From IMG/VR virus record IMGVR_UViG_3300014205_000019, positions 5,544 through 69,543 of that record: a stretch of DNA of 64,000 nucleotides; one strand, 5' to 3'. This DNA comes from a virus. Its lineage: Duplodnaviria; Caudoviricetes. This document shows, in pieces, positions 4,484 through 25,900 of this stretch. Numbering within the stretch: the first letter of the stretch is position 1; each line of letters starts with the position of its first letter. The position numbers and the translations under genes were made by a program. The notes under the pieces are model-generated. The model saw nothing but the letters and a program-made list of their open reading frames with translations, had not been told where the DNA came from and ran no database searches.

Positions 4484-4867
4484 TTATCCTCCTTGATAGG
4501 CGTGGACTTTATCAATCCACCTACTTGTCCGGTAATATAGTGGCTCGTTGATGAAGTTGTTATGCCACAATACGAAGGCAGCCTCGCCTTCTTTACCGTG
4601 TCTAACAACAAACCTATAGTTCTCTCGACCATCCTCGTCTGTGTTTACTAACTGATGGTCAACCATGATGTTGTGAGAACAGATTTTCTTTATCTGTTCA
4701 GCCATGTCATTACACTGGGGGTACTCACAAGATACACCCATGTGTTTGAGTTCTGCTATTGAAGGCAGAGGCGGGGTTCCATCAAGACTACCCATACTTC
4801 GGTATCTCCACTGAATGCGGGCTGGTGCAACTGGCACAGCGATACTTGCGATAGTATGCTGCATCAA
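4484..4867 (-). CDS. Hypothetical protein
   Basis: 127-aa ORF in operon. Confidence 0.55.
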   Translation of the reverse strand: MMQHTIASIAVPVAPARIQWRYRSMGSLDGTPPLPSIAELKHMGVSCEYPQCNDMAEQIKKICSHNIMVDHQLVNTDEDGRENYRFVVRHGKEGEAAFVLWHNNFINEPLYYRTSRWIDKVHAYQGG

Positions 4868-8826: not shown

Positions 8827-8860
8827 AAAACAAAAGTCCCCCAACCCGGAGGTGGGGGAC
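8827..8860 (-). terminator. Intrinsic terminator closing the tRNA array
   Basis: GTCCCCCA-cctccgggt-TGGGGGAC then TTTTGTTTT on the minus strand. Confidence 0.85.
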
Positions 8861-8890: not shown

Positions 8891-8966
8891 TGGTAGCGGC
8901 TGGTGGATTCGAACCACCGTTCTCTTGCTAATGACACAAGCGAGACGACCACTTCTCTAAGCCGCG
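8891..8966 (-). tRNA. tRNA-Met(CAT), initiator-like C1/U72 mismatch but without three G:C pairs in the anticodon stem
   Basis: Cloverleaf, loop GT-CAT-TA, TTCGAAT, ACCA. Confidence 0.8.
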
Positions 8967-8967
8967 A

Positions 8968-9076
8968 TGGTAAGAGGCCGGTACCGTCTACAAATGACGG
9001 CCCGATGCTCCTAAGACTGCTATCGCGGATTCGAACCGCCTCGTCCCCCAACGGGACGCGAACCACTTCCTAGCAG
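8968..9076 (-). ncRNA. Composite RNA 1: compact tRNA-like domain (9017-9076), TCTT, then a CCA-ended hairpin (8968-9013)
   Basis: CTGCTA/TAGCAG stem, GCGG-TTCGAAT-CCGC arm, CGTCC/GGACG arm; then GCCGTC-ATTTGTA-GACGGT hairpin ending ACCA. Confidence 0.65.
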
Positions 9077-9077
9077 A

Positions 9078-9201
9078 TGGTGGGGAGTATCTCTCATATT
9101 CTTATGGGTAAACGAGATACCGCCCAAGACTGTGTTCGAGGATTCGAACCTCACTGCCGTCTTTACAGAGGCCGGTGTGCTGCCAATTACACTACTCACA
9201 G
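9078..9201 (-). ncRNA. Composite RNA 2: degenerate Tyr-like tRNA domain (9130-9201), TCTT, then a CCA-ended hairpin
   Basis: CTGTG/CACAG stem, D arm, CT-GTA-AA-like loop, GAGG-TTCGAAT-CCTC; then GTATCTC/GAGATAC stem ending ACCA. Confidence 0.65.
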
Positions 9202-9202
9202 A

Positions 9203-9277
9203 TGGTTCCAGCGACACGGAATCGAACCTGCTCAGACGGTTTAAAAGACCGCTATGCAACCTTTACATCACGCTGGA
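9203..9277 (-). tRNA. tRNA-Lys(TTT)
   Basis: Cloverleaf, CT-TTT-AA, ACCA. Confidence 0.92.
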
Positions 9278-9278
9278 A

Positions 9279-9361
9279 TGTTCCTTCACGGAGGGATCGA
9301 ACCTACCACTTCTTACTTTGTTTACCTTAAGTAAGCGTACTACCGTTGTACTAGCGAAAGA
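9279..9361 (-). tRNA. Atypical tRNA-like gene with 14-nt anticodon loop and 3' ACA
   Basis: Acceptor TCTTTCG/TGAAGGA, stem CTTAC/GTAAG around TTAAGGTAAACAAA, T-loop TTCGATC. Confidence 0.6.
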
Positions 9362-9435
9362 TGGTTCGGGATTAAGGATTCGAACCCTAACTAAGTGGTT
9401 CAGAGCCACTCGACCTACCTTTAGTCTAATCCCGA
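9362..9435 (-). tRNA. tRNA-Gln(CTG)
   Basis: Cloverleaf, CT-CTG-AA, ACCA. Confidence 0.93.
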
Positions 9436-9436
9436 A

Positions 9437-9513
9437 TGGCGACCCTGACGGGAGTTGAACCCGCTGCCTCTTCCTTGACAGGGAAGTGTGCATAACCGTT
9501 ACACTTCAAGGCC
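9437..9513 (-). tRNA. tRNA-Asp(GTC)
   Basis: Cloverleaf, CT-GTC-AA, GCCA. Confidence 0.93.
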
Positions 9514-9515
9514 AT

Positions 9516-9591
9516 TGGTACCACACGACAGAATCGAACTGTCAACCTTTCGCGTATCAGGCGAATGCTCTAACCGTTGCGCTAGTGTGGC
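9516..9591 (-). tRNA. tRNA-Ile(GAT)
   Basis: Cloverleaf, CT-GAT-AC, ACCA. Confidence 0.93.
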
Positions 9592-9592
9592 A

Positions 9593-9666
9593 TGGTGGGT
9601 TATCAGAGAATCGAACTCTGGTGGGCGTGGTAAGAGCACGCTAGTCTACCACTGACTTAATAACCC
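9593..9666 (-). tRNA. tRNA-Lys(CTT)
   Basis: Cloverleaf, CT-CTT-AC, ACCA. Confidence 0.93.
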
Positions 9667-9667
9667 G

Positions 9668-9755
9668 TGGTGCAAGGTGTAGGATTCGAACCTACGAAGC
9701 CTGTTAGAGCCTCGGTTTTACAGACCGCTTACTTTGTCCGCTTGTATAACCTTGC
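9668..9755 (-). tRNA. tRNA-Tyr(GTA)
   Basis: Long variable arm, CT-GTA-AA, ACCA. Confidence 0.93.
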
Positions 9756-9756
9756 G

Positions 9757-9831
9757 TGGTAGCCCCAACGGGACTCAAACCCGTTTCCAGAACTTGAAAG
9801 GTTCTTATCCTAATCCATAGACGATGGGGCC
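9757..9831 (-). tRNA. tRNA-Glu(TTC)
   Basis: Cloverleaf, CT-TTC-AA, ACCA. Confidence 0.92.
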
Positions 9832-10121
9832 ATGCGATTGAAAGTACGAACAGCGTGGCAGTTAGCACATACTATTTCGCACTTCATTAACTCATCCACC
9901 AGTTTGTCAAGTCCGACTCTGTGATAATGAGCAATGTTAAATTTCTTTTCACCTTTTACATGGTCGAACTGCATAGCGGCTTCGTGATATTGTACACCAC
10001 AATCCTTACAAGGCTTGTCTTTCCATGCTAAAACAACTTGGCGCAGTAGATTGGCCCGTTCGTATATCTGAGCCTTTCTCTTGTCCCTATTGTTTTGGTA
10101 ATAGGTCTGATTGTAATTCAT
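9810..10121 (-). CDS. HNH endonuclease 1 (homing-type)
   Basis: CKDCG...QFDH...CEIVCANCHAVRT; stop lies inside tRNA-Glu. Confidence 0.85.
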   Translation of the reverse strand: MNYNQTYYQNNRDKRKAQIYERANLLRQVVLAWKDKPCKDCGVQYHEAAMQFDHVKGEKKFNIAHYHRVGLDKLVDELMKCEIVCANCHAVRTFNRMAPSSMD

Positions 10122-10125
10122 CAGA

Positions 10126-10199
10126 TGGTACCCCTTGACAGAATCGAACTGCCGCTGGATGTGTGTAAAACATCTACACTACCATTATGTTAAAGGGGC
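10126..10199 (-). tRNA. tRNA-Val(TAC)
   Basis: Cloverleaf, TT-TAC-AC, ACCA. Confidence 0.92.
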
Positions 10200-10200
10200 T

Positions 10201-10233
10201 TGGCAGGAGGGACGGTGTTGGGCCCGCCCTCCT
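10201..10233 (-). ncRNA. 33-nt CCA-ended minihelix
   Basis: 7-bp AGGAGGG/CCCTCCT plus CGG/CCG, G discriminator, CCA; 1-nt spacers. Confidence 0.7.
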
Positions 10234-10234
10234 A

Positions 10235-10308
10235 TGGCTCCACATCAAGGAATCGAACCCTGATAGCAACGTTAACAGCGTCGCGTCTTACCGTTAGACG
10301 AATGTGGA
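10235..10308 (-). tRNA. tRNA-Asn(GTT)
   Basis: Cloverleaf, CT-GTT-AA, GCCA. Confidence 0.93.
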
Positions 10309-10309
10309 A

Positions 10310-10395
10310 TGGTACACCTAGAGGGACTCGAACCCCCATGAACTTTCGTTCGCTGCGTTCTAAGCGCAGTATGTCTGCCGTTTCATCATAGGTGC
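10310..10395 (-). tRNA. tRNA-Leu(TAG)
   Basis: Long variable arm, CT-TAG-AA, ACCA. Confidence 0.93.
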
Positions 10396-10396
10396 A

Positions 10397-10433
10397 TGGT
10401 GACCTGTCTACATTCTATTTCAAATGGTGGGCC
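10397..10433 (-). ncRNA. CCA-ended spacer RNA (weak local hairpin, strong long-range complement)
   Basis: GGCC/GGTC plus CATTT/GAATG stems, ACCA end, internal ACCA at 10425-10428. Confidence 0.45.
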
Positions 10434-10434
10434 G

Positions 10435-10509
10435 TGGTGCCGCCTGTGGGTATCGCGCCCACTACCTCTGGTTTTTCAGACCAGCGCTCTACTATTGTGC
10501 TAAGGCGGC
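10435..10509 (-). tRNA. tRNA-Phe(GAA) with non-canonical T-loop
   Basis: CT-GAA-AA; T-loop CGCGATA; D-loop without GG; ACCA. Confidence 0.88.
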
Positions 10510-10557
10510 TTAGATAGGTCAGGCAAATTCCGTGGAGTTCGCCCGACCCACTAACTT

Positions 10558-10583
10558 TGGAGCCAGAGGATTCGGATTCTGGC
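10558..10583 (-). ncRNA. 26-nt CCA-ended microhelix
   Basis: GCCAGA-ATCCGAATCC-TCTGGC, U discriminator, CCA. Confidence 0.7.
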
Positions 10584-10584
10584 A

Positions 10585-10672
10585 TGGTGTCAATGAGGGG
10601 ACTCGAACCCCTACGCGCCGTGGGCGCACTACGTTCTCAGCGTAGCCTGTTTGCCAATTACAGCACATCGAC
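10585..10672 (-). tRNA. tRNA-Leu(GAG)
   Basis: Long variable arm, CT-GAG-AA, ACCA. Confidence 0.93.
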
Positions 10673-10746
10673 TGGTCAGGGTAGGGAGAATCGAACTCCC
10701 GTCTTACCGTTCCAAGCGGCATACGTTACCACTACACTATACCCTG
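10673..10746 (-). tRNA. tRNA-Pro(TGG)
   Basis: Cloverleaf, CT-TGG-AA, ACCA. Confidence 0.93.
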
Positions 10747-10747
10747 A

Positions 10748-10804
10748 TGGTGCCGCCCTTGGGGATTTGCTATTCGCACCCCTACAGCCTTGGAGACGGG
10801 CGAC
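10748..10804 (-). ncRNA. 57-nt mini-tRNA without anticodon arm
   Basis: 7-bp GTCGCCC/GGGCGGC, tiny hairpin, GGGG/CCCC arm, ACCA. Confidence 0.7.
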
Positions 10805-10805
10805 A

Positions 10806-10891
10806 TGGCGGACTCTGTGAGATTCGAACTCACGGGGCTTGCACCCACTAGTTTAGCAAACTAGGTCGTTAAACCACTCCGACAAGAATCC
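10806..10891 (-). tRNA. tRNA-Ser(GCT)
   Basis: Long variable arm, TT-GCT-AA, GCCA. Confidence 0.93.
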
Positions 10892-10892
10892 G

Positions 10893-10927
10893 TGGTGGGC
10901 CTGCCTCATGTTGATTGCTGCAAGCCC
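10893..10927 (-). ncRNA. 35-nt CCA-ended minihelix
   Basis: GGGCTTGC/GCAGGCCC stem, ACCA, 1-nt spacers. Confidence 0.7.
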
Positions 10928-10928
10928 G

Positions 10929-10961
10929 TGGTGGCCCCTCCCGTATAAAGCGCGAGAGGCC
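10929..10961 (-). ncRNA. 33-nt CCA-ended minihelix
   Basis: GGCCTCTC/GAGGGGCC plus CG/CG, 7-nt loop CTTTATA, ACCA. Confidence 0.7.
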
Positions 10962-10962
10962 G

Positions 10963-11038
10963 TGGTGACGCATAGGGGATTCGAACCCCTGACTTCTACC
11001 TTGAGAGGGTAGCGTCCTAACCGCTAGACGAATGCGCC
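10963..11038 (-). tRNA. tRNA-Glu(CTC)
   Basis: Cloverleaf, CT-CTC-AA, ACCA. Confidence 0.93.
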
Positions 11039-11040
11039 AT

Positions 11041-11139
11041 AGAAGGAAGGGAGAGTGTGGATATTGTTTGGCAATATCGCGGCCCACCCTCTGCCTCTTC
11101 CCTCCGTGGGGGTTCCGAGTCCGCATCTCTTGGCTCGGT
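11041..11139 (-). ncRNA. Putative structured leader RNA (long irregular hairpin)
   Basis: GATATTG/CAATATC apical stem, purine/pyrimidine outer stem, 5' CCGAG/CTCGG hairpin; starts right after the promoter. Confidence 0.4.
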
Positions 11140-11145
11140 CTTACA

Positions 11146-11174
11146 ATTATAGCACAATGACAACTAGTTGTCAA
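11146..11174 (-). promoter_or_regulatory. Internal consensus sigma70 promoter with overlapping 16-bp palindrome
   Basis: TTGACA-N17-TATAAT with TG; TGACAACTAGTTGTCA at 11158-11173. Confidence 0.88.
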
Positions 11175-11194
11175 GTACCCTTGTAAGTTTATTT

Positions 11195-11269
11195 TGGTAC
11201 CCATATCAGGACTCGAACCTGACTTCTATCTTTAGGAGAGATAGGTAATATCCACTATACTATATGGGC
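11195..11269 (-). tRNA. tRNA-Arg(CCT)
   Basis: Cloverleaf, CT-CCT-AA, ACCA. Confidence 0.9.
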
Positions 11270-11484
11270 GGGTGACAGGAACACATACAATCAAAGTTTC
11301 TACACTGTTGGTGGAACCACGAACGTGTGGCTCTGTAGTCTAGGGCACACAATACTGAAAGAGTTGTGTTGGGGCCTAATTTATTCAGCATACTCTTTTG
11401 TGTGAGACTAAGAGAGTTTTCTACTCTACAATCTTTTGTGTGGCCCGACCCAACAGGTAGGTGACACGAGATGCAGTTTTCCAT
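11260..11484 (-). CDS. Cys-rich small protein, CxNF[DE]CxCxCH family member 1
   Basis: C-terminal QCRNFDCMCSCH; stop inside tRNA-Arg(CCT). Confidence 0.7.
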   Translation of the reverse strand: MENCISCHLPVGSGHTKDCRVENSLSLTQKSMLNKLGPNTTLSVLCALDYRATRSWFHQQCRNFDCMCSCHPPI

Positions 11485-11501
11485 AGGTATCCTTTCGAAT
11501 A

Positions 11502-11587
11502 TGGCGGAAAGGGCGAGAGTCGAACTCGCAAGGCTTACGCTCGTCCGTTTTCAAGACGGGTTCCGTTGCCAATCGGATAACCTTTCC
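11502..11587 (-). tRNA. tRNA-Ser(TGA)
   Basis: Long variable arm, CT-TGA-AA, GCCA. Confidence 0.93.
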
Positions 11588-11588
11588 G

Positions 11589-11630
11589 TGGTGGGGTACC
11601 CGGCGTCACTCGGGAGACTTTCTTTACCCC
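11589..11630 (-). ncRNA. 42-nt three-way mini-tRNA
   Basis: GGGGTA/TACCCC, AGA-AAG-TCT mini-hairpin, CCCG-8nt-CGGG arm, ACCA. Confidence 0.7.
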
Positions 11631-11631
11631 G

Positions 11632-11706
11632 TGGTGCCCTCGTTGGGAATCGAACCCAAACCTCAACCTTCGCAGGGTTGCATCGTATCCGTTGGACTAC
11701 GAGGAC
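11632..11706 (-). tRNA. tRNA-Arg(GCG)
   Basis: CAACC-CT-GCG-AA-GGTTG, ACCA. Confidence 0.9.
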
Positions 11707-11951
11707 TGTTCGTGACAACTACATTCACAATCAAAATTCTTACAAAAGTAGTGAGCAGTCCTGTAGTTTTCTGAAACATAATCAAAAATGTTTCCGGGAT
11801 GTGTACAAGCCTTACTAACTAATTTGTTAAGCCAATTGAAATCTTCTCCACTTTCAGGACAGTTTACGAAATGATAAAAGTTATGTCCTTTGTGTACTCT
11901 CTGTTTACAAACGTCGCAAACTACATAACCGTCGCTGGTTTCTCGTGGCAT
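11697..11951 (-). CDS. Cys-rich small protein, family member 2
   Basis: FCKNFDCECSCH; ATG at 11951; stop inside tRNA-Arg(GCG). Confidence 0.72.
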   Translation of the reverse strand: MPRETSDGYVVCDVCKQRVHKGHNFYHFVNCPESGEDFNWLNKLVSKACTHPGNIFDYVSENYRTAHYFCKNFDCECSCHEQSS

Positions 11952-11966
11952 GGTGTGACCTTTCAC
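11951..11966 (-). ncRNA. 16-nt CCA-ended tetraloop hairpin carrying the SD of the next ORF
   Basis: GTGA-AAGG-TCAC-ACCA; the last A is the A of the ATG. Confidence 0.5.
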
Positions 11967-11967
11967 A

Positions 11968-12043
11968 TGGAGCAGGATATGGGAATCGAACCCATTACCT
12001 CTTCTTTACCAAAGAAGTGTTCGTCCGTATGAACTTAACCTGC
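11968..12043 (-). tRNA. tRNA-Thr(GGT)
   Basis: TT-GGT-AA, TCCA. Confidence 0.9.
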
Positions 12044-12184
12044 ATTCTTCTTATGACACCGACAGCCGCAATCAAAATTTGCACACTTACTGTGGAACTC
12101 CTGAATTCGCGGGTCGGCCGACATAGTTGCATGGAAGCAATATCCGCTTTTAAGAGTGTTTAATTCTTCTCTTATAGTCGTCAT
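12035..12184 (-). CDS. Cys-rich small protein, family member 3 (49 aa, not in ORF track)
   Basis: Hand-translated MTTIREELNTLKSGYCFH...KCANFDCGCRCHKKNAG*; stop inside tRNA-Thr. Confidence 0.72.
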   Translation of the reverse strand: MTTIREELNTLKSGYCFHATMSADPRIQEFHSKCANFDCGCRCHKKNAG

Positions 12185-12327
12185 TATGATGCGTGACATT
12201 TACACTGACACTCGAAGTTTGCACACTTTCTGTGTAAGTCGGCAGCCACGCGTAAATGTTGGGCCGACTCTGCTGCATAGCAGTAACGTGATAGAACCTC
12301 ATTATACATATTAAATATGTTTCCCAT
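12184..12327 (-). CDS. Cys-rich small protein, family member 4 (47 aa)
   Basis: MGNIFNMY...YCY...KCANFECQCKCHAS*; TAATG coupling to member 3. Confidence 0.72.
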   Translation of the reverse strand: MGNIFNMYNEVLSRYCYAAESAQHLRVAADLHRKCANFECQCKCHAS

Positions 12328-12330
12328 AGT

Positions 12331-12344
12331 TGGTACCTTTCGGT
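12331..12344 (-). ncRNA. 14-nt CCA-ended GAAA-tetraloop hairpin carrying an SD
   Basis: ACC-GAAA-GGT-ACCA then ACT ATG. Confidence 0.45.
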
Positions 12345-12345
12345 A

Positions 12346-12420
12346 TGGTAGCCCCTGTAGGAATCGAACCCACATCACAACGTTCGAAGCGTCGCGTCGT
12401 ATCCATTAGACTAAGGGGCC
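12346..12420 (-). tRNA. tRNA-Arg(TCG)
   Basis: CT-TCG-AA, ACCA. Confidence 0.92.
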
Positions 12421-12429
12421 AAGGTGCCC

Positions 12430-12774
12430 TTAACGGGCTAGTTGGGCTGTGCTTAGAATGGCTAGAACGGTTTGCCACTCGGTATTACCATAAAGTGTAT
12501 CATCAATTAAAACTGCTGTGGCTGTATGTAAACCATCGAGGGTTTGGTCGTCCTCAAAAAATGGAGCATGTGATATGCCAGAACCCGATAGGTGAAATAG
12601 TAGTTTAGACATTTGTTGAGTATTACCACCCTCTACAATCACGAGGGTCTTGTGTTCTTTGGCCCATTTACGCGCCTTCTTGTCTTTGAGTAAGATTTCG
12701 GCTACGGCGTGTGCCGCCTGAATACCCTTTTGCATCGTTGAAAGATGCGAGTGAACAACTACATAGAGTTTCAA
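12430..12774 (-). CDS. Peptidyl-tRNA hydrolase 2 (PTH2)-like protein
   Basis: KLYVVVHSHLSTMQKGIQAAHAVAE resembles the PTH2 N-terminal motif (K-x-A-Q-x-x-H-A); later TLVIV and HTATAV segments; 114 aa. Confidence 0.7.
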   Translation of the reverse strand: MKLYVVVHSHLSTMQKGIQAAHAVAEILLKDKKARKWAKEHKTLVIVEGGNTQQMSKLLFHLSGSGISHAPFFEDDQTLDGLHTATAVLIDDTLYGNTEWQTVLAILSTAQLAR

Positions 12775-12857
12775 CTTCTATTCCTTATCTCGCAGGCACA
12801 AAAATTACACTCTCTTGCGTGTAAAAGGTGACCACATTTACAAAGTCGAACTAGCAT
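12771..12857 (-). CDS. 28-aa Zn-finger-like peptide
   Basis: Hand-translated MLVRLCKCGHLLHARECNFCACEIRNRS*; SD GAAAGGAG. Confidence 0.55.
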   Translation of the reverse strand: MLVRLCKCGHLLHARECNFCACEIRNRS

Positions 12858-12861
12858 AGTT

Positions 12862-12879
12862 TGGTGCTCCTTTCTAAGC
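12862..12879 (-). ncRNA. 18-nt CCA-ended hairpin carrying an SD
   Basis: GCTT-AGAAAG-GAGC-ACCA then AACT ATG. Confidence 0.45.
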
Positions 12880-12880
12880 A

Positions 12881-12965
12881 TGGTACAGCCTACGGGATTC
12901 GAACCCGTACTCCGTTAGGAACCAATTTTTAAGATTGGCGTGTCTACCGATTTCACCACGGCTGC
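12881..12965 (-). tRNA. tRNA-Leu(TAA)
   Basis: Long variable arm, CT-TAA-AA, ACCA. Confidence 0.93.
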
Positions 12966-12966
12966 A

Positions 12967-13010
12967 TGGTGGGACGCTCCGGGCAAATTCGGAGAAGCAC
13001 TCTTCATCCC
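12967..13010 (-). ncRNA. 44-nt three-way mini-tRNA
   Basis: GGGATG/CGTCCC, AAG-AGTG-CTT mini-hairpin, CTCCG-8nt-CGGAG arm, ACCA. Confidence 0.7.
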
Positions 13011-13011
13011 G

Positions 13012-13097
13012 TGGCGGACAGGGGGAGATTCGAACTCCCGACCCTTTCGGGTACTACTTTTCCAGAGGAGCGCACTAGACCACTATGCGACCTGTCC
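13012..13097 (-). tRNA. tRNA-Ser(GGA)
   Basis: Long variable arm, CT-GGA-AA, GCCA. Confidence 0.9.
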
Positions 13098-13448
13098 TTG
13101 TCTACGATTAAATGTTCTTATAGCATGACAATTAGCACATACTATCTCACATTTACTAATTTCTAAGAGAATTCTTTTCCAACTTATATTGGTGGTAATC
13201 CCTCTACTTATGTTGAATACTTTATCTTCTCCAATGTGATCAAACTGCATGACCGCATAATGGTATTGTACTCCACAATCAGTACAAGGAACTTCCTTTA
13301 ATTTCCTAATAAAATTACTTCTTTGGTCGTATCGTTCGAAGAAGTAATTTTTTCTACAAGATTTGCACCAAGATTGTTTTGTTCCTGTTTTCTTTTTGAA
13401 AAAGTTTATTTCTGGTAAGTGTTGGTCACATTTAGAACAGTAAAACAT
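13083..13448 (-). CDS. HNH endonuclease 2 with N-terminal Zn finger
   Basis: CSKC...WCKSC, CTDCG...QFDH...CEIVCANCHAIRT; ATG 13448 after AAAGGAG; stop inside tRNA-Ser. Confidence 0.85.
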   Translation of the reverse strand: MFYCSKCDQHLPEINFFKKKTGTKQSWCKSCRKNYFFERYDQRSNFIRKLKEVPCTDCGVQYHYAVMQFDHIGEDKVFNISRGITTNISWKRILLEISKCEIVCANCHAIRTFNRRQGQVA

Positions 13449-13463
13449 TTTGCTCCTTTGTGA

Positions 13464-13540
13464 TGGTACGGGTAGGGGGATTCGAACCCGCCACTCTTTC
13501 GCATATAAGGCGATGGCATTAACCGTCATGCTATACCCGC
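13464..13540 (-). tRNA. tRNA-Ile(TAT)
   Basis: TCGC-CT-TAT-AT-GCGA, ACCA. Confidence 0.85.
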
Positions 13541-13541
13541 G

Positions 13542-13600
13542 TGGGGCCGGTAGCAGGGACTCGCACCCTTGTATCTAGAACACTACTACTTTGTACCGGC
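13542..13600 (-). ncRNA. 59-nt mini-tRNA with acceptor and T arm, no anticodon arm
   Basis: GCCGGTA/TACCGGC, AGGG-TGCGAGT-CCCT, C discriminator, CCA. Confidence 0.7.
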
Positions 13601-13601
13601 A

Positions 13602-13676
13602 TGGTGGAGACTACGGGAATCGAACCCGTGATTCTTCTTTGCAAGAGAAGTGTGTTACCTCTAGCACTAAGTCCCC
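13602..13676 (-). tRNA. tRNA-Ala(TGC)
   Basis: CT-TGC-AA, G3:U70, ACCA. Confidence 0.94.
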
Positions 13677-13801
13677 GAAGCCCTACCAACCCGGAGGTAG
13701 TAGGGAAGAGTTTGTTGCCAACCTAACAGCAGGCCATTACGCCGCCATTTAAAGGATTCTGGTTTGCTGGCTCTCCCAATCCTTTTTCGATTGTAATTAC
13801 T

Positions 13802-14172
13802 GCAATGATGCTTAATAGCCCGGATTCTGTCAGGCCCGGTATGTAACGACGTAATTACTCGTCTCCCTGCTGGCCTGTACTGACATCTCCCTCACAACGG
13901 AATACCATCCCCGTCGTGGCCTGCGTCTAAAGCATGGCTGCCCCCTACCATATTTGGGGTTACTCGCCCGCTCCTGTACCCCGTTTCACTCGGCAAGCAA
14001 TAAGCCGATATCGTCACTGTTGGCAGGAACTCTTGCCCTTGCTAGTGGGCAGGCCGACCTTATTAGAGTCGAGCGGTTTTACATGGGTACCACCCCATGT
14101 GCGAGGCCGGAACTTGTTCCTCTATAATGTTTACCTTGCGGAACATTACAGCGTCAGAGTCCACATCATTAC
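13802..14172 (-). ncRNA. rnpB: RNase P RNA (bacterial-type ribozyme), about 371 nt
   Basis: P1 GTAATGATGT/GCATCATTGC; P2 CTGAC/GTCAG; P3 GTAATGTT/AACATTAT; P4 5' GAGGAACAAGTTCCGG (14107-14122) and 3' ACAGAATCCGGGCTA (13816-13830); GTGAAACG and CAAATA landmarks in the expected order. Confidence 0.8.
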
Positions 14173-14181
14173 TATTTGGTA

Positions 14182-14197
14182 TGGTGTCCTTGCGGAC
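14182..14197 (-). ncRNA. 16-nt CCA-ended GNRA hairpin just before the RNase P RNA
   Basis: GTCC-GCAA-GGAC-ACCA, followed by a second TACCA. Confidence 0.55.
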
Positions 14198-14198
14198 G

Positions 14199-14275
14199 TG
14201 GTGCTTGTCGTGGGATTCGAACCCACACTGTTACGTTTTTGAGACGTATCCCTCTGCCAATTGGAGTACACAAGC
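14199..14275 (-). tRNA. tRNA-Leu(CAA) with short variable loop
   Basis: TACGT-CT-CAA-AA-ACGTA, 5-nt variable region, ACCA. Confidence 0.85.
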
Positions 14276-14276
14276 A

Positions 14277-14352
14277 TGGTAGTCGCTACTGGATTCGAAC
14301 CAGTTTATCACGCTTATGAGACGTGCATCTTAACCCTGTTGATTCAGCGACC
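14277..14352 (-). tRNA. tRNA-Met(CAT), elongator (Ile2 not excluded)
   Basis: CT-CAT-AA, paired 1:72, ACCA. Confidence 0.85.
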
Positions 14353-14353
14353 G

Positions 14354-14423
14354 TGGTGCGAGTTGCTAGTCCGATTCGAACGGACGTATGTGCGACATAC
14401 CTACCTTGATTATGTAGCAACTC
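14354..14423 (-). ncRNA. 70-nt tRNA-like RNA with 9-bp acceptor and collapsed anticodon loop
   Basis: GAGTTGCTA/TAGCAACTC, GTATGT-CGC-ACATAC, GTCCG-TTCGAAT-CGGAC, GCACCA. Confidence 0.7.
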
Positions 14424-14521
14424 ATTCAATCTCTGTACTTTACTTCACCCACTCGACCAGCAGGTACCCTTAAATACTGGTTGTCTTAGCAGAGGACTGT
14501 ATTTCTGACCAGAGACTGAAT
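14424..14521 (-). ncRNA. Putative ~100-nt multibranch RNA without CCA
   Basis: 12-bp closing stem ATTCAGTCTCTG/CAGAGATTGAAT with inner ACCAG/CTGGT stem. Confidence 0.4.
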
Positions 14522-14525
14522 AGAG

Positions 14526-14553
14526 TGGCGAGAGTGTGCCCTCGTCAACTCGC
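14526..14553 (-). ncRNA. 28-nt CCA-ended microhelix
   Basis: GCGAGT/ACTCTC stem with one mismatch, GCCA end. Confidence 0.5.
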
Positions 14554-14554
14554 A

Positions 14555-14644
14555 TGGAAGATAGGGTGGGATTCGAACCCACGGAGCAAATCAATGCTCT
14601 CTCGTTTTCGAGACGAGTGCCGTAAGCCGCTTGGCTACCTATCC
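14555..14644 (-). tRNA. tRNA-Ser(CGA)
   Basis: Long variable arm, CT-CGA-AA, TCCA. Confidence 0.92.
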
Positions 14645-14645
14645 G

Positions 14646-14726
14646 TGGTTGGTGTCCTTGAAGAAGCCCGTCAGTAGATTATTTCTTCATTAGTCTACTG
14701 TTCTCACGTCACGGGACAATAAGGAC
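14646..14726 (-). ncRNA. 81-nt rod-like RNA ending ACCAACCA
   Basis: GTCCTT/AAGGAC, CCGT/ACGG and CAGTAGA/TCTACTG stems. Confidence 0.6.
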
Positions 14727-14727
14727 A

Positions 14728-14802
14728 TGGTTGAGGAAGTAGGATTCGAACCCACACCGTTTCGGTTCAAAGCCGAAAGACCTACCGTTAGTCTATTCCT
14801 CA
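14728..14802 (-). tRNA. tRNA-Gln(TTG)
   Basis: CT-TTG-AA, ACCA. Confidence 0.93.
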
Positions 14803-14803
14803 A

Positions 14804-14879
14804 TGGGGCGGAGTACGGGAATCGAACCCGCATTTACCGGGTCACAGCCGGTCGCTTGTACCAATAAGTTAACTCCACC
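14804..14879 (-). tRNA. tRNA-His(GTG)
   Basis: CT-GTG-AC, G-1:C73, CCA. Confidence 0.93.
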
Positions 14880-14880
14880 G

Positions 14881-14955
14881 TGGAGAGCCTAGCCAGAGTC
14901 GAACTGGCCTAAAGTAGTTTTGCAGACTACTGCCTTGCCGCTTGGCTATAGGCTC
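14881..14955 (-). tRNA. tRNA-Cys(GCA)
   Basis: CT-GCA-AA, U73, CCA. Confidence 0.93.
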
Positions 14956-14956
14956 A

Positions 14957-15002
14957 TGGTGCCCGGCCTACCTACGGTTCAATTACCGAATTGAGACTAG
15001 GC
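14957..15002 (-). ncRNA. 46-nt CCA-ended mini-tRNA
   Basis: GCCTAG/CCGGGC stem, CAATT-CGGT-AATTG arm, ACCA. Confidence 0.6.
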
Positions 15003-15003
15003 A

Positions 15004-15077
15004 TGGTGCAGCATGGGAGAATCGGACTCCCGCGTCAACGTTGGCAACGTTGCATTGTACCATTCAATTAATGCTGC
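15004..15077 (-). tRNA. tRNA-Gly(GCC)
   Basis: TT-GCC-AA, T-loop TCCGATT, ACCA. Confidence 0.9.
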
Positions 15078-15151
15078 TGGCACGGTGTGTAGGAATCGAA
15101 CCCACGTCTAGAGTTTTGGAGACACTAGTATTACCATTATACGAACACCGC
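15078..15151 (-). tRNA. tRNA-Trp(CCA)
   Basis: CT-CCA-AA, GCCA. Confidence 0.92.
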
Positions 15152-15152
15152 A

Positions 15153-15226
15153 TGGAGCATCATGCCGGTGCTGCCCCGGCGACCTCTGCTTGGAAGGCAG
15201 ATACGTTTCTGTTACGCCAATGATGC
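15153..15226 (-). tRNA. tRNA-Gly(TCC) with remodelled elbow
   Basis: CT-TCC-AA; T-loop GGCAGCA; D-loop without GG; U73 CCA. Confidence 0.85.
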
Positions 15227-15553
15227 TTGATATCTGTCGTATGTTCGTTGTCTGTGACAGTTAGAACAGACAAGTTCACACTTCTTGATTTCGTTTAATA
15301 TTCTTTCTTCACTGTAGGTTTGTCGTACCATAACCGAAATTTCTTTGAATTTCTTTTCATTTCCAAGATGGTCAAATTCCATAACATATGGGGGATATTT
15401 TATACCACAATCGGTACAGGGCTTATTTTTAAGACTATTTACAAACTCAAGTCTTTTCGTCCTGAGTTCCTTGTTCTTAAGGATATATTGTTCCTTATTT
15501 CTTTGGTAGTGTGTTAGTCCATCGACTTCACATTGAGAGCCTTCTTTCTTCAT
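15212..15553 (-). CDS. HNH endonuclease 3
   Basis: CTDCG...MEFDH...CELVCSNCHRQRT; own promoter; stop inside tRNA-Gly. Confidence 0.85.
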   Translation of the reverse strand: MKKEGSQCEVDGLTHYQRNKEQYILKNKELRTKRLEFVNSLKNKPCTDCGIKYPPYVMEFDHLGNEKKFKEISVMVRQTYSEERILNEIKKCELVCSNCHRQRTYDRYQASLA

Positions 15554-15561
15554 TACTTCCA

Positions 15562-15590
15562 ATTATATCATATTTTGGAAGTTTTGTCAA
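15562..15590 (-). promoter_or_regulatory. Consensus sigma70 promoter
   Basis: TTGACA-N17-TATAAT with TG; ATG 8 nt after the -10 box. Confidence 0.88.
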
Positions 15591-15711
15591 GTATGGAAGG
15601 CAGATTTCATACCATTAGAACAACGTCCCGTAACCTTACTTCTTACGCCTACGTGGGCCTATCGCGGCCTCCATGAGCGCCTTACCTATAATGTCTGCTG
15701 TGATGGTCTTT

Positions 15712-16020
15712 CTATCGGTCGTCGGACTCGTATTCTTCTTGCGAGTCGTCTTGCCTGTAGTATTCTTGCTTGCCATGCGTGAACCTCCGTGCCCTGCGAA
15801 CCGCCTCGGGAGGGGCTAGGGCCAGCACCTCGACAGGGAGGGCTTCCGTTCTCCCCTTCGGGGAGGGTGTCGCCTCCTGCTCGGTCAAATAACGGTGTCG
15901 CCCACAACTTATGCAGACGATTTTGTCCTCCGAGTGGATGCGCCCCATGCCCTGCCCGTATACAATATACCCGGCTTGGTATTCAAGGAACCCACCACAA
16001 TGTTCTCGGGGACACTTCAT
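15712..16020 (-). CDS. Zn-ribbon protein with acidic tail
   Basis: CPREHCGG...CISCGR. Confidence 0.6.
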   Translation of the reverse strand: MKCPREHCGGFLEYQAGYIVYGQGMGRIHSEDKIVCISCGRHRYLTEQEATPSPKGRTEALPVEVLALAPPEAVRRARRFTHGKQEYYRQDDSQEEYESDDR

Positions 16021-16106
16021 TACTTCTTCTTTCCGCCCTTCTTCTTAGGTGCGTCGTCTTTCTTCATCCAAGGTGGTAACTTCTTAGCCTTCTTCTTTAC
16101 TGGCAT
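16020..16106 (-). CDS. 28-aa Lys-rich peptide
   Basis: Hand-translated MPVKKKAKKLPPWMKKDDAPKKKGGKKK*; SD GGGGGTG; TAATG coupling. Confidence 0.6.
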   Translation of the reverse strand: MPVKKKAKKLPPWMKKDDAPKKKGGKKK

Positions 16107-16129
16107 TCATTCACCCCCGTGTTATTTAT

Positions 16130-16203
16130 TGGAGCACGCACCCGGAATTGGGCCGAGAATTGGATTTTACGAGAATCCCGTCTTACCGTTAGACTATGCG
16201 TGC
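16130..16203 (-). tRNA. tRNA-Thr(CGT)
   Basis: CT-CGT-AA; T-loop CCCAATT; TCCA. Confidence 0.88.
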
Positions 16204-16204
16204 A

Positions 16205-16278
16205 TGGAGCCGAAGCGGGGAATCGAACCCCGGTAGCCGCTTTACAAGAGCGGTGCAGTACCACTGTGCTACTCCGAC
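16205..16278 (-). tRNA. tRNA-Thr(TGT)
   Basis: CT-TGT-AA, TCCA. Confidence 0.93.
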
Positions 16279-16279
16279 A

Positions 16280-16354
16280 TGGCGCCCCGCAGAGGAATCG
16301 AACCCCTATGATAACTTTAGAAGAGTTATGTCCTGTCCGTTGAACGAGCGAGGC
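16280..16354 (-). tRNA. tRNA-Arg(TCT)
   Basis: CT-TCT-AA, GCCA. Confidence 0.93.
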
Positions 16355-16461: not shown

Positions 16462-16490
16462 ATTATACCACTTTCTTCATTCATTGTCAA
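16462..16490 (-). promoter_or_regulatory. Consensus sigma70 promoter at the head of the tRNA array
   Basis: TTGACA-N17-TATAAT with TG. Confidence 0.88.
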
Positions 16491-16747: not shown

Positions 16748-16774
16748 TATACCATATCGTACTTTCTTTGTCAA
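16746..16774 (-). promoter_or_regulatory. Leftward sigma70 promoter overlapping the rightward one
   Basis: TTGACA-N17-TATAAT with TG. Confidence 0.85.
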
Positions 16775-22974: not shown

Positions 22975-25900
22975 ATGACAAATTTCTTAAACCCACTGGA
23001 AAACGTAGAGCGTGCCGTAACACGGGCAGCGGATTCTGTTCGACAGTATACGGAACAGGAACCTTCTGACGTTCAGCCTTCTATGCCACCAGCGCCGCCC
23101 CCTTCTCTTCAAGAGTCTATGAATAGATTCCGTGAAGTAGATAGGGGTATTTCTATTGAGAAAAGTCAGGCTGTTGCTCGTGAATCTGTGGAGCGAGCGC
23201 CGGTTATTCCTAAGCCTGTCACTTCTACTTATGAGGGACTAGCGCAGCCAGAAATGGTTGACGCCGACTACGACCGTGCCGTGACTGGATTCCGTCGCAA
23301 TGTTGATTCATACTTTGGTTCGCGCTTTGCCGCTGGTGAAACGATGCGACAGGCCGTGGATGCTATTGTTGGTCGAGAGCCTACTACAATTCCTACTAGT
23401 GAGAAGATTGAAATTCGCGATGCGCTTGATAAGACTCCCGCTCGTACAGCCATGCGCCAGTTCTCTAACGAGATTTGGCAGCAGATTGGTATGCAGAATC
23501 AGAACCTGTTCCTTGGTATTGCGTTGCAGCAGGCCGAGCAGTTTGGTGATGTGTCTGTTACTCAGTATCAAAACAAGGTAGCCAGCGATGCGGGCCGCGC
23601 AGAAATCTTTGCTAACCTACTAGACTTTGTAATTACTACACCGGATAGCGCGTCGCCTTATCTCATTGAGTTCTATGAATCTCTTGGAGTTGTATCAAAG
23701 AGAGAAGTTACTGAACAAAGTCCAGCGCCTTCCTTTACTCCGAAGTATTCTAAGATTCCGGTATTTGGTAAGCACATCGACAAGGTACTTGAAACAATCA
23801 ACGCAGGTATACCCGTAGTTACCTTTGACCTAGCCGTGGCGGGCCTCCTTGATAGGGAGGAAATGTCCACCAGTCAGATTGTACGCGAACGAACACTCAT
23901 GCTCTTCTCTGTTAAGGATGCTATCAATCAATCCATTCGTGGACTTGAAACCGATGCTGAAAAGATTGAGGCGTTCAAGGGACAGTATGTTCACATTGAT
24001 GGACGCTACACTACTACTGAAAATCCAGTAATCCAGACTATGCAGACAGAGGAAATTACCACACTTCGTGGTCTTACTCCTGAACTCTCTAAGATGCCCA
24101 TTGATACGTTCCTTGCGGCTCTGACAGTACCGGCCAACTCTATTGAGAGACAGCGCCGCTCTGACATGAGCATTCAGGAACGCTACCGCTATGGCCTACT
24201 AACCGAAGCCGAGCGTACTTGGTTCGACTTGGGCATTACTGAGGCCACCATGAAGGTGCTCTCTGAGTATCTTGTTATCAGTCCTAAGAACCAAACTCTT
24301 GACCGTATTAAGTATGCGGGCGAAGTTAAGCAGCAGCAGATTGACGAAGCGCGAATCCGCGAGTATCTATTCAGCACCGCTGAGGGACGAGAGGCTCCCG
24401 GTGTGGGAGAGGGTAACTGGACTACAGTTCTACCTAAGGGTATGATTACTTCTAACATTTCTCCTGAGTTCCTTTATGAAATGGGATTCAGTGAGGAAGC
24501 CATTAAGGATATGGTAGGAGAGGGATTCAAGGTACCAGTTATTGGGGGTCTTATGAACTTTGCTGGTGACTTGTTCTCCGGCTTTGGTCTGTTAGATGCG
24601 TGGCACGACCACGATGCAGAGTCCTTCCTTAATGACCCAACAAAGCCTGTACGACTAACAACGGTTTGGGATAGTGTTCTTTCACTTGACAACAACGAAG
24701 AACATCTTGATGTTAATGGACAGTTGGCAGCCATTCAAAAGACCTTTAATGAAAAGACCAATCCTGACTTCTTGCCCGGTGGCAAGTATCGCACTCGCTT
24801 AACTGAAATCTATCAGTCACCTTATACTTCGCCGGAGCAGCGCAACCTCATTGAAGATATTGCAGCAGACTTTGAAAATGTCGAACTCAATCAGTGGACT
24901 AATCAGTACGAGAACCCCGGCATCAAGATGTTTGTTGACTTGATTGATGCTGGTAAGTCCGTAGAGGAAGCCATCGAAGAAGTCTCTAGTTGGCGCAGCC
25001 TTGTGACTCGAACAGCCCTCGGACTTGACATGCAGTTGATGCCGCTTGGTGGACTTGTGCGAAAGGGCGGTAACGCTGCCTTCCGTGCTATCCGTGGTAT
25101 CCCTCAGTTTGAAGTAGAGGGACGCGGCATCATCGAAGGACTGCGCGCTGGTCAGGTATTGACTAGAGCCGACGACGACTTTGCCGAAGTTCTTGGCGAG
25201 TTGTCTGTGCGTCGTATGCAGGTTGAGAGTATGCTTGGTAACGAGTACGAGATAGCCGAAGTTATTACTACTGGCTCTACTCGCGGACTAGGTGTGCAGA
25301 GAGTAGCGGGACTTGCGGAAGATACTGTTATTCCTCTTAATCGTACCAAGATTCGAATGCTCGAAGATGAGTTGGCCGAAATTGACCGCATCCTTGATTC
25401 AACCGAAGATACAATCCGAGTTCAGAAGGACATCTTTAATCCTCGCACAACGCCACGCGCTATCTACACCGGAGACTCTATCTCTGACGTGTTCCAGATT
25501 TATGCGCCGATTCGTCGTGTAATCAAGCAGCGCACCAGTGCATCGCTTCCTATTGGACGCGCGGCTATGAGTCAGGTGGACGAGGGTGCTACACTAACAG
25601 AAAGAATTCTTTCTGGTACGGCTCTAAGAAACAAAGAGTTCTCTCAGAGAGCCTCAGTAGTTTCCTATGCTTTCTCGGTAACAGATGAATTCTCACAGAT
25701 GCTTAGGAAGATTCCGCTTTCTCGATACAACATTGAGACAGGCGGAAAGGACTTAATCCTTGACCTTAAGCAGTTTATTACTGACCTTGCTACTGTAGGC
25801 AAAACTGATAACGCTCGACCCTTCTTGGCTAAGTACAACACTCATAAGTATGAGACAGAGCGCTTCTTCCAGACAGCCGAACTCGTTGGAAACGAGGTAG

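Follow-up and report, generated by a model that had tools for sequence, protein, structure and literature searches.

The closest described counterparts of the arrangement reported here are found in the tRNA regions of bacteriophages T4 and T5. For segB of T4 it was proposed that the maturation of tRNA-Arg severs the stop codon from the last codon of the transcript and impairs the mRNA (Brok-Volchanskaya et al. 2008, PMC2330249), and a passage of the same article states that a similar lowering of expression had been proposed for the T5 HNH enzymes F-TflI, II, and IV. SegB cleaves within tRNA genes (PMC13096335). In the curated T5 record (NC_005859) the HNH genes hegD and hegC read 23 nucleotides (nt) into tRNA-Gln2 and 14 nt into tRNA-Ser2, and two other small ORFs, T5.069 and T5.057, read 24 nt into tRNA-Asn and 6 nt into tRNA-Met. 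In mycobacteria and mycobacteriophages HNH genes are the most widespread coding sequences of tRNA arrays, where PTH2-like, RF-1-domain, and tmRNA genes also recur (PMC5966550, PMC6582537); the word "overlap" is absent from the text of the first of these articles and occurs once in that of the second, for read depth, so that by this search a stop codon inside a tRNA is described in neither. Here we present six genes whose stop codons lie inside the next tRNA, all of them in a single tRNA operon of a tailed phage. The stretch of DNA that was analysed, called the window from here on, covers 64 kb of the 69.5-kb IMG/VR virus record IMGVR_UViG_3300014205_000019, which has direct terminal repeats and is rated complete.

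The tRNA operon spans 8891-16354 on the minus strand, to which all window coordinates refer unless another strand is given, and many of its tRNAs are spaced by 0-2 nt. Taking together the calls of ARAGORN and Rfam cmscan, the list of open reading frames (ORFs), and the sequence itself, all six ORFs terminate 9-22 nt within the following tRNA. Three of them encode HNH proteins. The stop of HNH1 (103 amino acids (aa), 9810-10121) ends at 9810 and the 5′ end of tRNA-Glu(UUC) (9757-9831; ARAGORN and cmscan, 49.5 bits) is at 9831, so that the overlap is 22 nt and the stop is U20-A21-G22 of the tRNA. The stop of HNH2 (121 aa, 13083-13448) ends at 13083, 15 nt into tRNA-Ser(GGA) (13012-13097, 5′ end at 13097; ARAGORN and cmscan, 49.3 bits), and corresponds to T13-A14-G15. 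That of HNH3 (113 aa, 15212-15553) ends at 15212, also 15 nt inside, as T13-A14-A15 of tRNA-Gly(UCC) (15153-15226, 5′ end at 15226). The remaining three encode Cys-rich micro-proteins: Cys1 (74 aa, 11260-11484) ends at 11260 in tRNA-Arg(CCU) (11195-11269, 5′ end at 11269; ARAGORN and cmscan, 55 bits) and Cys2 (84 aa, 11697-11951) ends at 11697 in tRNA-Arg(GCG) (11632-11706, 5′ end at 11706; ARAGORN and cmscan, 56.9 bits), both with 10 nt of overlap and the stop at U8-A9-G10, and Cys3 (49 aa, 12035-12184) ends at 12035, 9 nt into tRNA-Thr(GGU) (11968-12043, 5′ end at 12043; ARAGORN and cmscan, 53.5 bits), with TAA at positions 7-9 of a tRNA that has an unusual A at position 8. The overlap lengths of 22, 10, 10, 9, 15, and 15 nt (HNH1, Cys1, Cys2, Cys3, HNH2, and HNH3) are exactly those given by the original prediction, which was made from the letters of the window and which further claimed that RNase P, cutting at tRNA position +1, would detach all six stop codons. 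The geometry of this second claim holds, and by deduction each upstream message would be left without a stop.

The complement of tRNAs was established with ARAGORN, which called 36, and with the Rfam tRNA model (cmscan), which added two, at 15156-15226 and 9207-9277, for a total of about 38 in the operon. The first of these two additions is the tRNA-Gly(UCC) that holds the stop of HNH3; it was missed by ARAGORN and scored 44.7 bits with cmscan against a gathering score of 29. It has a cloverleaf fold with the anticodon loop CUUCCAA, an odd T-loop, and a D-loop without GG.

Compared with the window, the tRNA region of T5 is alike in that free-standing HNH genes (hegC and hegD, which encode F-Tfl enzymes) stand among same-strand tRNAs and have their stops in the next tRNA; stable tRNA-like RNAs and several strong promoters are likewise present there. 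It differs in that its HNH proteins belong to another subfamily, of about 190 aa, in a 122-kb siphovirus that has no PTH2 and no annotated RNase P-like RNA in its tRNA region, whereas the array of the window is denser and includes a non-nuclease family, the Cys micro-proteins, with the same layout. T4 segB shares with the window a selfish nuclease gene co-transcribed with tRNAs and a proposed damping through removal of the stop, but SegB has a GIY-YIG fold and the RefSeq segB gene stops short of tRNA-Arg by 5 nt. A more distant comparison is offered by the tRNA punctuation of mitochondria, where excision of the flanking tRNAs makes the mRNA ends and some ORFs lack a complete stop codon, which is finished by polyadenylation. 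This is an analogy only, since none of the window RNAs cut at +1 would end in U or UA and the result would be a true non-stop end.

The layout was also looked for in other phages. Among 80 IMG/VR loci with HNH homologs, 28 had tRNAs, and the HNH copies closely followed by a tRNA mostly ended inside it, most commonly after 15 nt; the tRNAs entered included tRNA-Gln, Trp, Glu, Pro, Arg, and Met, with a 1-nt spacer at one locus (L065) and a 9-nt overlap at another (L013). A scan of IMG/VR with the HNH1 protein alone gave one locus, without tRNAs. In Myxococcus phage Mx1 (L084, OR576727.2) an unannotated HNH ORF of 140-170 aa at 1501-1926, between tRNA-Gln and tRNA-Lys, reads into tRNA-Lys; its running into the tRNA is one possible reason for its being missing from the annotation. 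A mechanical survey found two more such ORFs in Mx1, 22 nt into tRNA-Glu and 10 nt into tRNA-Val, and in total it counted 51 ORFs (60 aa or longer) that read into a tRNA and 37 that have a stop of their own; the long read-ins are probably spurious. An HNH gene of mycobacteriophage Sebata runs for 39 nt into a tRNA of the opposite strand. The stop-in-tRNA layout is thus common in phage tRNA clusters, and both the layout and the regulatory idea attached to it were already known from the T5 annotation and from the SegB proposal of 2008.

Considering how the six stops are placed, it was possible to see that they coincide with triplets conserved in tRNAs, namely, U8-A9-G10, N13-A14-R15, and U20-A21-G22. 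The conserved ends of the proteins lie only 2-15 nt from tRNA +1, and therefore reading into the tRNA is the default outcome. Six of the seven array genes that directly precede a tRNA are without their own stop, the exception being the PTH2-like gene, whose stop is found 9 nt before tRNA-Arg(UCG). The 5′ halves of tRNAs are rich in stops because structure conserves these triplets; even so, when the 38 tRNAs of the window were read in the three frames, a stop by position 22 was present in just 44% of the frames, and six early stops out of six have a probability of about 0.007 under random phase. The same was noted in a wider collection: across 424 distinct phage tRNAs, a stop was met by position 24 with a chance of 0.42, the peaks being at positions 10, 15, and 21-23, and 19 of the 21 collected HNH read-ins ended by tRNA position 24, where 42% would be expected in a random frame (binomial p 5e-6). 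Read-in genes thus occupy the phases that exploit the conserved stop triplets of the tRNA. This suggests that the in-tRNA stops are really used, that ribosomes reach them, and that there is selection for short read-in tails, and it follows from the excess of early in-frame stops that any switch is at most partial.

Relatives of the phage were found through TerL homologs in a protein database and the contigs that carry them: L088 (65% TerL identity), L090 (67%), and L091 (48%), each with the same minus-strand array adjoining the terminase gene. A scan of IMG/VR with TerL and a metagenome scan with TerL peptides gave no matches, and no GenBank phage was a close relative at the DNA level, TerL identity being at most 30%. 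The site occupied by HNH1 is empty in both L088 and L090, where tRNA-Val(UAC) and tRNA-Glu(UUC) are 1 nt apart. The site of HNH2, between tRNA-Ile(UAU) and tRNA-Ser(GGA), is filled in L088 by a 69%-identical ortholog and empty in L090, again with a 1-nt spacer. The L088 ortholog has the same start context, and owing to an indel at the junction it uses a different in-tRNA stop, 23 nt inside and not 15. The L088 junctions Arg(UCG)/Thr(GGU)/Arg(GCG) and Ser(UGA)/Arg(CCU) are of 1 nt each, and no Cys genes were found in L088, L090, or L091. Four HNH copies are present at other junctions in L090, three of them reading 23, 15, and 23 nt into tRNA-His, Asp, and Arg, and the fourth ending at a stop of its own, 54 nt short of a tRNA. 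In L091 a 174-aa gene with a precomputed match to AAA_28 (PF13521) reads 15 nt into tRNA-Glu(CUC). This comparison of sites is decisive for the origin of the layout: the read-in genes of the window are accessory insertions at junctions without spare bases, and the overlaps arise because cassettes inserted at 1-nt tRNA junctions leave no room for a stop. The original prediction had named overlaps as frequent as simple insertion would give as an outcome that would tell against it, and the filled and empty sites come close to that outcome.

The tRNAs themselves are mosaic among these relatives. Identity between tRNAs of the same anticodon ranges from 58 to 97%; tRNA-Asn of the window is 97% identical to that of L088 and 76% to that of L090, and for tRNA-Cys the values are 88% and 97%. 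Such mosaicism suggests that gene conversion or the exchange of alleles is frequent in these arrays. In L090, a 3′ tRNA remnant of about 38 nt (4499-4536, minus strand) follows its own tRNA-Arg(UCG), and about 28 nt of it are identical to the 3′ end of the window tRNA-Arg(UCG). In the window, a short hairpin after tRNA-Arg(UCG) (12325-12345) ends in GGTACCA and in this resembles the allele of L088 and L090 type at its 3′ end. The remnant and the hairpin look like scars of tRNA allele replacement, a process that may be the origin of the CCA-ended micro-hairpins that carry Shine-Dalgarno sequences.

The three nucleases match PHROG HNH families with E values from 1e-22 to 3e-31: HNH1 and HNH2 belong to phrog_2255 (E 1e-22 and 3e-31) and HNH3 to phrog_3106 (E 5e-24), while the Pfam model PF01844 gave HNH3 a weak score of 15.8 bits. 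The paralogs are 36-42% identical and retain both CxxC pairs, the D-H, the Asn, and the final C-x-x-C-H, and the invariant columns of their alignment are C38, C41, D53, H54, C85, N87, C88, and H89. The presence and absence of these genes among the relatives is the pattern expected for free-standing homing endonuclease genes, and we regard them as putative members of that class. The start of HNH2 (ATG at 13448) is preceded by an AGGAG Shine-Dalgarno site. The initiation of the other two is predicted to be tied to the precursor or to leaderless translation, because the ATG of HNH1 stands 4 nt after the CCA of tRNA-Val and, in the stretch 15553-15590, that of HNH3 stands 8 nt past a perfect extended -10 box. 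The HNH3 mRNA is probably leaderless and would serve as the 5′ leader of the tRNA transcript.

The four Cys paralogs (46-84 aa, 11260-12324) share the C-terminal motif C-x-N-F-[DE]-C-x-C-x-C-H, which in Cys1 takes the form C-x-N-F-D-C-x-C-x-C-H. This invariant nine-residue motif is kept across synonymous codons (AAC/AAT, TTT/TTC, TGT/TGC, and CAC/CAT), and therefore the Cys ORFs are protein-coding. Cys2 has its ATG at 11951 with a GAAAGG Shine-Dalgarno-like site. Cys4 (46 aa, 12184-12324) can be taken as a control copy: no tRNA follows it, and it has its own stop, which overlaps the start of Cys3 (TAATG). Searches for relatives of the Cys proteins gave nothing above thresholds in Pfam and PHROG, with one sub-threshold Pfam match for Cys2, no homolog in a collection of 5.8 billion proteins, no matches in a scan of IMG/VR with the Cys alignment, and protein-atlas matches that were all below 0.9. 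Kinship with the C-terminus of the HNH proteins was also considered and was ruled out by profile comparison (probability 0.3%). A further micro-ORF of 28 aa with a CxC...CxxC pattern (12771-12857) has a strong AGGAG site, and its TGA and the TTG start of the PTH2-like gene overlap (GTTGA); the relatives lack this micro-ORF.

The ORFs and the tRNAs very probably share one transcript, because they are on the same strand, are preceded by consensus promoters, and run to just one terminator-like site, beyond the array. The promoters, four perfect copies of TTGACA-17-TATAAT that also have the TG extension, point in the direction of the array and start at 16774, 16490, 15590, and 11174. The one at 15562-15590, with 12 of 12 consensus matches, is placed to drive HNH3 and the tRNAs downstream of it, and it has twins at 16462-16490 and 11146-11174. 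The only terminator-like hairpin on the array strand (8838-8852) is just past the last tRNA. Within the operon, and apart from the stop overlaps, there is an RNase P RNA-like element (13811-14166) that scored 48.9 bits against RF00011, under the gathering score of 97, and that aligns across the full length of the model. It has the P4-type landmarks GAGGAA-AG-UCC and ACAGAA...GG..UA, and syntenic counterparts are conserved in L088 (4772-5135) and L090 (5760-6158), with 78% and 70% identity. A literature search found no report of a phage-encoded RNase P RNA. Outside the array, downstream of the terminase gene and a 635-aa gene, a 3277-aa ORF (22975-32808, plus strand) has counterparts of 3240 and 3350 aa in L088 and L091, and its size is reminiscent of the virion RNA polymerases of N4-like phages.

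Taking into account these observations, we consider it probable that the six in-tRNA stops are a by-product of cassettes docking at tRNA junctions, with a damping effect that is tolerated. Mobile or accessory cassettes, the three HNH paralogs and the Cys family, would have inserted exactly at tRNA/tRNA junctions, and at a junction without room for a stop or a trailer the ORF would enter the tRNA and end at a structurally conserved triplet. A ribosome that terminates at tRNA positions 7-22 covers the 5′ strand of the acceptor stem, and therefore translation to the stop and folding or cleavage of the tRNA would be mutually exclusive on each molecule. The full-length protein would be made solely from the unprocessed precursor RNA; once RNase P had cut, the upstream mRNA would be without a stop and would pass to the ordinary rescue and decay of the host. 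The net outcome would be a low and transient expression of the selfish nucleases, in the brief period before processing. This damping is probably tolerated or mildly useful and not a purpose-built switch.

Several points weigh against this explanation. Co-transcription, the order of processing, and translation are all things that we infer from the sequence. Cleavage and homing by the HNH proteins are putative, and what speaks for site-specific homing is the presence/absence pattern only. The tRNA partners do not sort by HNH lineage (15 changes on the tree and, when shuffled, 16.2 on average), and the tRNAs adjacent to cassettes are not significantly more divergent than the others (Mann-Whitney p 0.13-0.63). 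The Cys genes are without homologs, and their supposed mobility is read from their absence in three relatives only. Finally, the bias of six stop-less genes in seven could have another cause, that is, selection for coupling.

The idea of the original prediction was that of a selected off-switch, in which RNase P makes non-stop mRNAs whose products are tagged and degraded, and in which the stalled ribosomes and peptidyl-tRNA so created explain the PTH2-like gene of the same array. The geometry is correct and the idea has published precedent in T4 SegB and the F-Tfl enzymes of T5, for which such regulation was put forward (PMC2330249); also in its favour, six of the seven tRNA-adjacent genes are stop-less while the probably beneficial PTH2-like gene keeps its own stop, an RNase P RNA-like gene is part of the operon and is retained by relatives, and genes for rescue (PTH2-like, RF-1 domain, tmRNA) are repeatedly met in phage tRNA arrays (PMC5966550). 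Against a selected switch, the empty 1-nt sites indicate that the geometry of insertion forces the overlap. Moreover, early stops are strongly enriched, for which no selection would be expected were the cut the usual end of translation, and the HNH gene of Sebata enters its tRNA on the opposite strand, where the logic of RNase P cannot apply. We therefore judge a selected off-switch unlikely.

The link to rescue was considered separately. Complexes stalled on non-stop messages are resolved mainly on the ribosome, by tmRNA, ArfA, and ArfB, and not by free peptidyl-tRNA hydrolase, which, as general knowledge, also speaks against the off-switch. The PTH2-like peptidyl-tRNA hydrolase of the window (114 aa, 12430-12774) was recognised by PF01981 (27.4 bits, the cut-off being 23) and by phrog_3668 (E 6e-23); a scan of IMG/VR with this protein alone gave no matches. 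In L088 the gene occupies the same place, with a 4-nt spacer, and persists there although only one gene reads into a tRNA, and it is also present in L090. A PF01981 match is absent from T5, despite its four read-ins, and from T4, which has segB, and it is present in Mx1 and Sebata. Homologs of PTH2 were found in tRNA-rich phages of Aeromonas, Klebsiella, and Vibrio and, in Raoultella phage Ro1, beside tRNA nucleotidyltransferase genes; such genes are described as regular residents of phage tRNA arrays (PMC5966550). A specific link of the PTH2-like gene to the six read-in ORFs is thus not supported. From its distribution, the gene is to all appearances a separate conserved member of the tRNA array, for which a general role in the tRNA pool or in counter-defence would be at least as likely as a link to the read-ins.

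A broader form of the same thought joins the elements of the operon: if translation were coupled to tRNA 5′ maturation generally, and by selection, this coupling, with the RNase P RNA of the array and rescue by PTH2, would make a self-contained module for processing, attenuation, and rescue. We hold this to be rather improbable. If it were true, RNase P would restrict selfish or dose-sensitive genes to a brief pulse of expression from the nascent precursor.

It could also be thought that each HNH gene moves with its downstream tRNA as one mobile unit that replaces resident tRNA alleles, the overlap being the fused boundary. At the HNH2 site, the adjacent tRNA-Ser(GGA) is 86% identical between the window and L088, whereas their identities to the empty-site allele of L090 are 78% and 72%, and the two filled-site alleles share a TAG-bearing D-arm. 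Similarly, the tRNA-Glu(UUC) after HNH1 shares only 63-68% identity with the alleles of the empty sites, whereas these share 85% between them. The remnant of a window-type tRNA-Arg(UCG) in L090 is placed right after the Arg tRNA that follows an HNH gene of that phage, and the mosaic alleles described above (58-97% identity) would fit with replacement. These allele differences are suggestive. However, across the tRNAs those beside cassettes do not differ significantly from the others (Mann-Whitney p 0.13-0.63), and changes of tRNA partner on the HNH tree are no fewer than after shuffling (15 against a mean of 16.2). The Cys genes, in addition, overlap their tRNAs likewise without any nuclease. 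A joint mobile unit seems to us quite improbable.

That the ORFs are decaying or untranslated remnants and their overlaps of no consequence is very improbable, for although HNH1 has no space for a ribosome-binding site outside tRNA-Val, the PHROG profiles run 25-36 positions past the HNH C-termini, and the Cys genes are orphans, the HNH paralogs retain their CxxC pairs, D-H, Asn, and C-x-x-C-H at 36-42% identity, the L088 ortholog of HNH2 retains its start context, the invariant nine-residue Cys motif is kept through synonymous changes, good Shine-Dalgarno sites precede most of these ORFs, and early stops are enriched.

The placing of stop codons inside tRNAs is not a new phenomenon, and its regulatory role stands as a proposal. 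With docking of cassettes at tRNA junctions as the probable cause, the window is an unusually clean natural case, in which six genes of one operon borrow their stops from tRNAs, in a layout that is usually hidden by gene callers, since tRNAs get masked. The filled and empty sites of the relatives reveal how such a layout arises. To the precedent of T5 and T4 it is added that non-nuclease micro-protein genes behave alike and that read-in tails are shorter than chance. With its six junctions, its consensus promoters of the E. coli type, and what may be a phage RNase P RNA, the operon offers a compact system for the throttling hypothesis of 2008.

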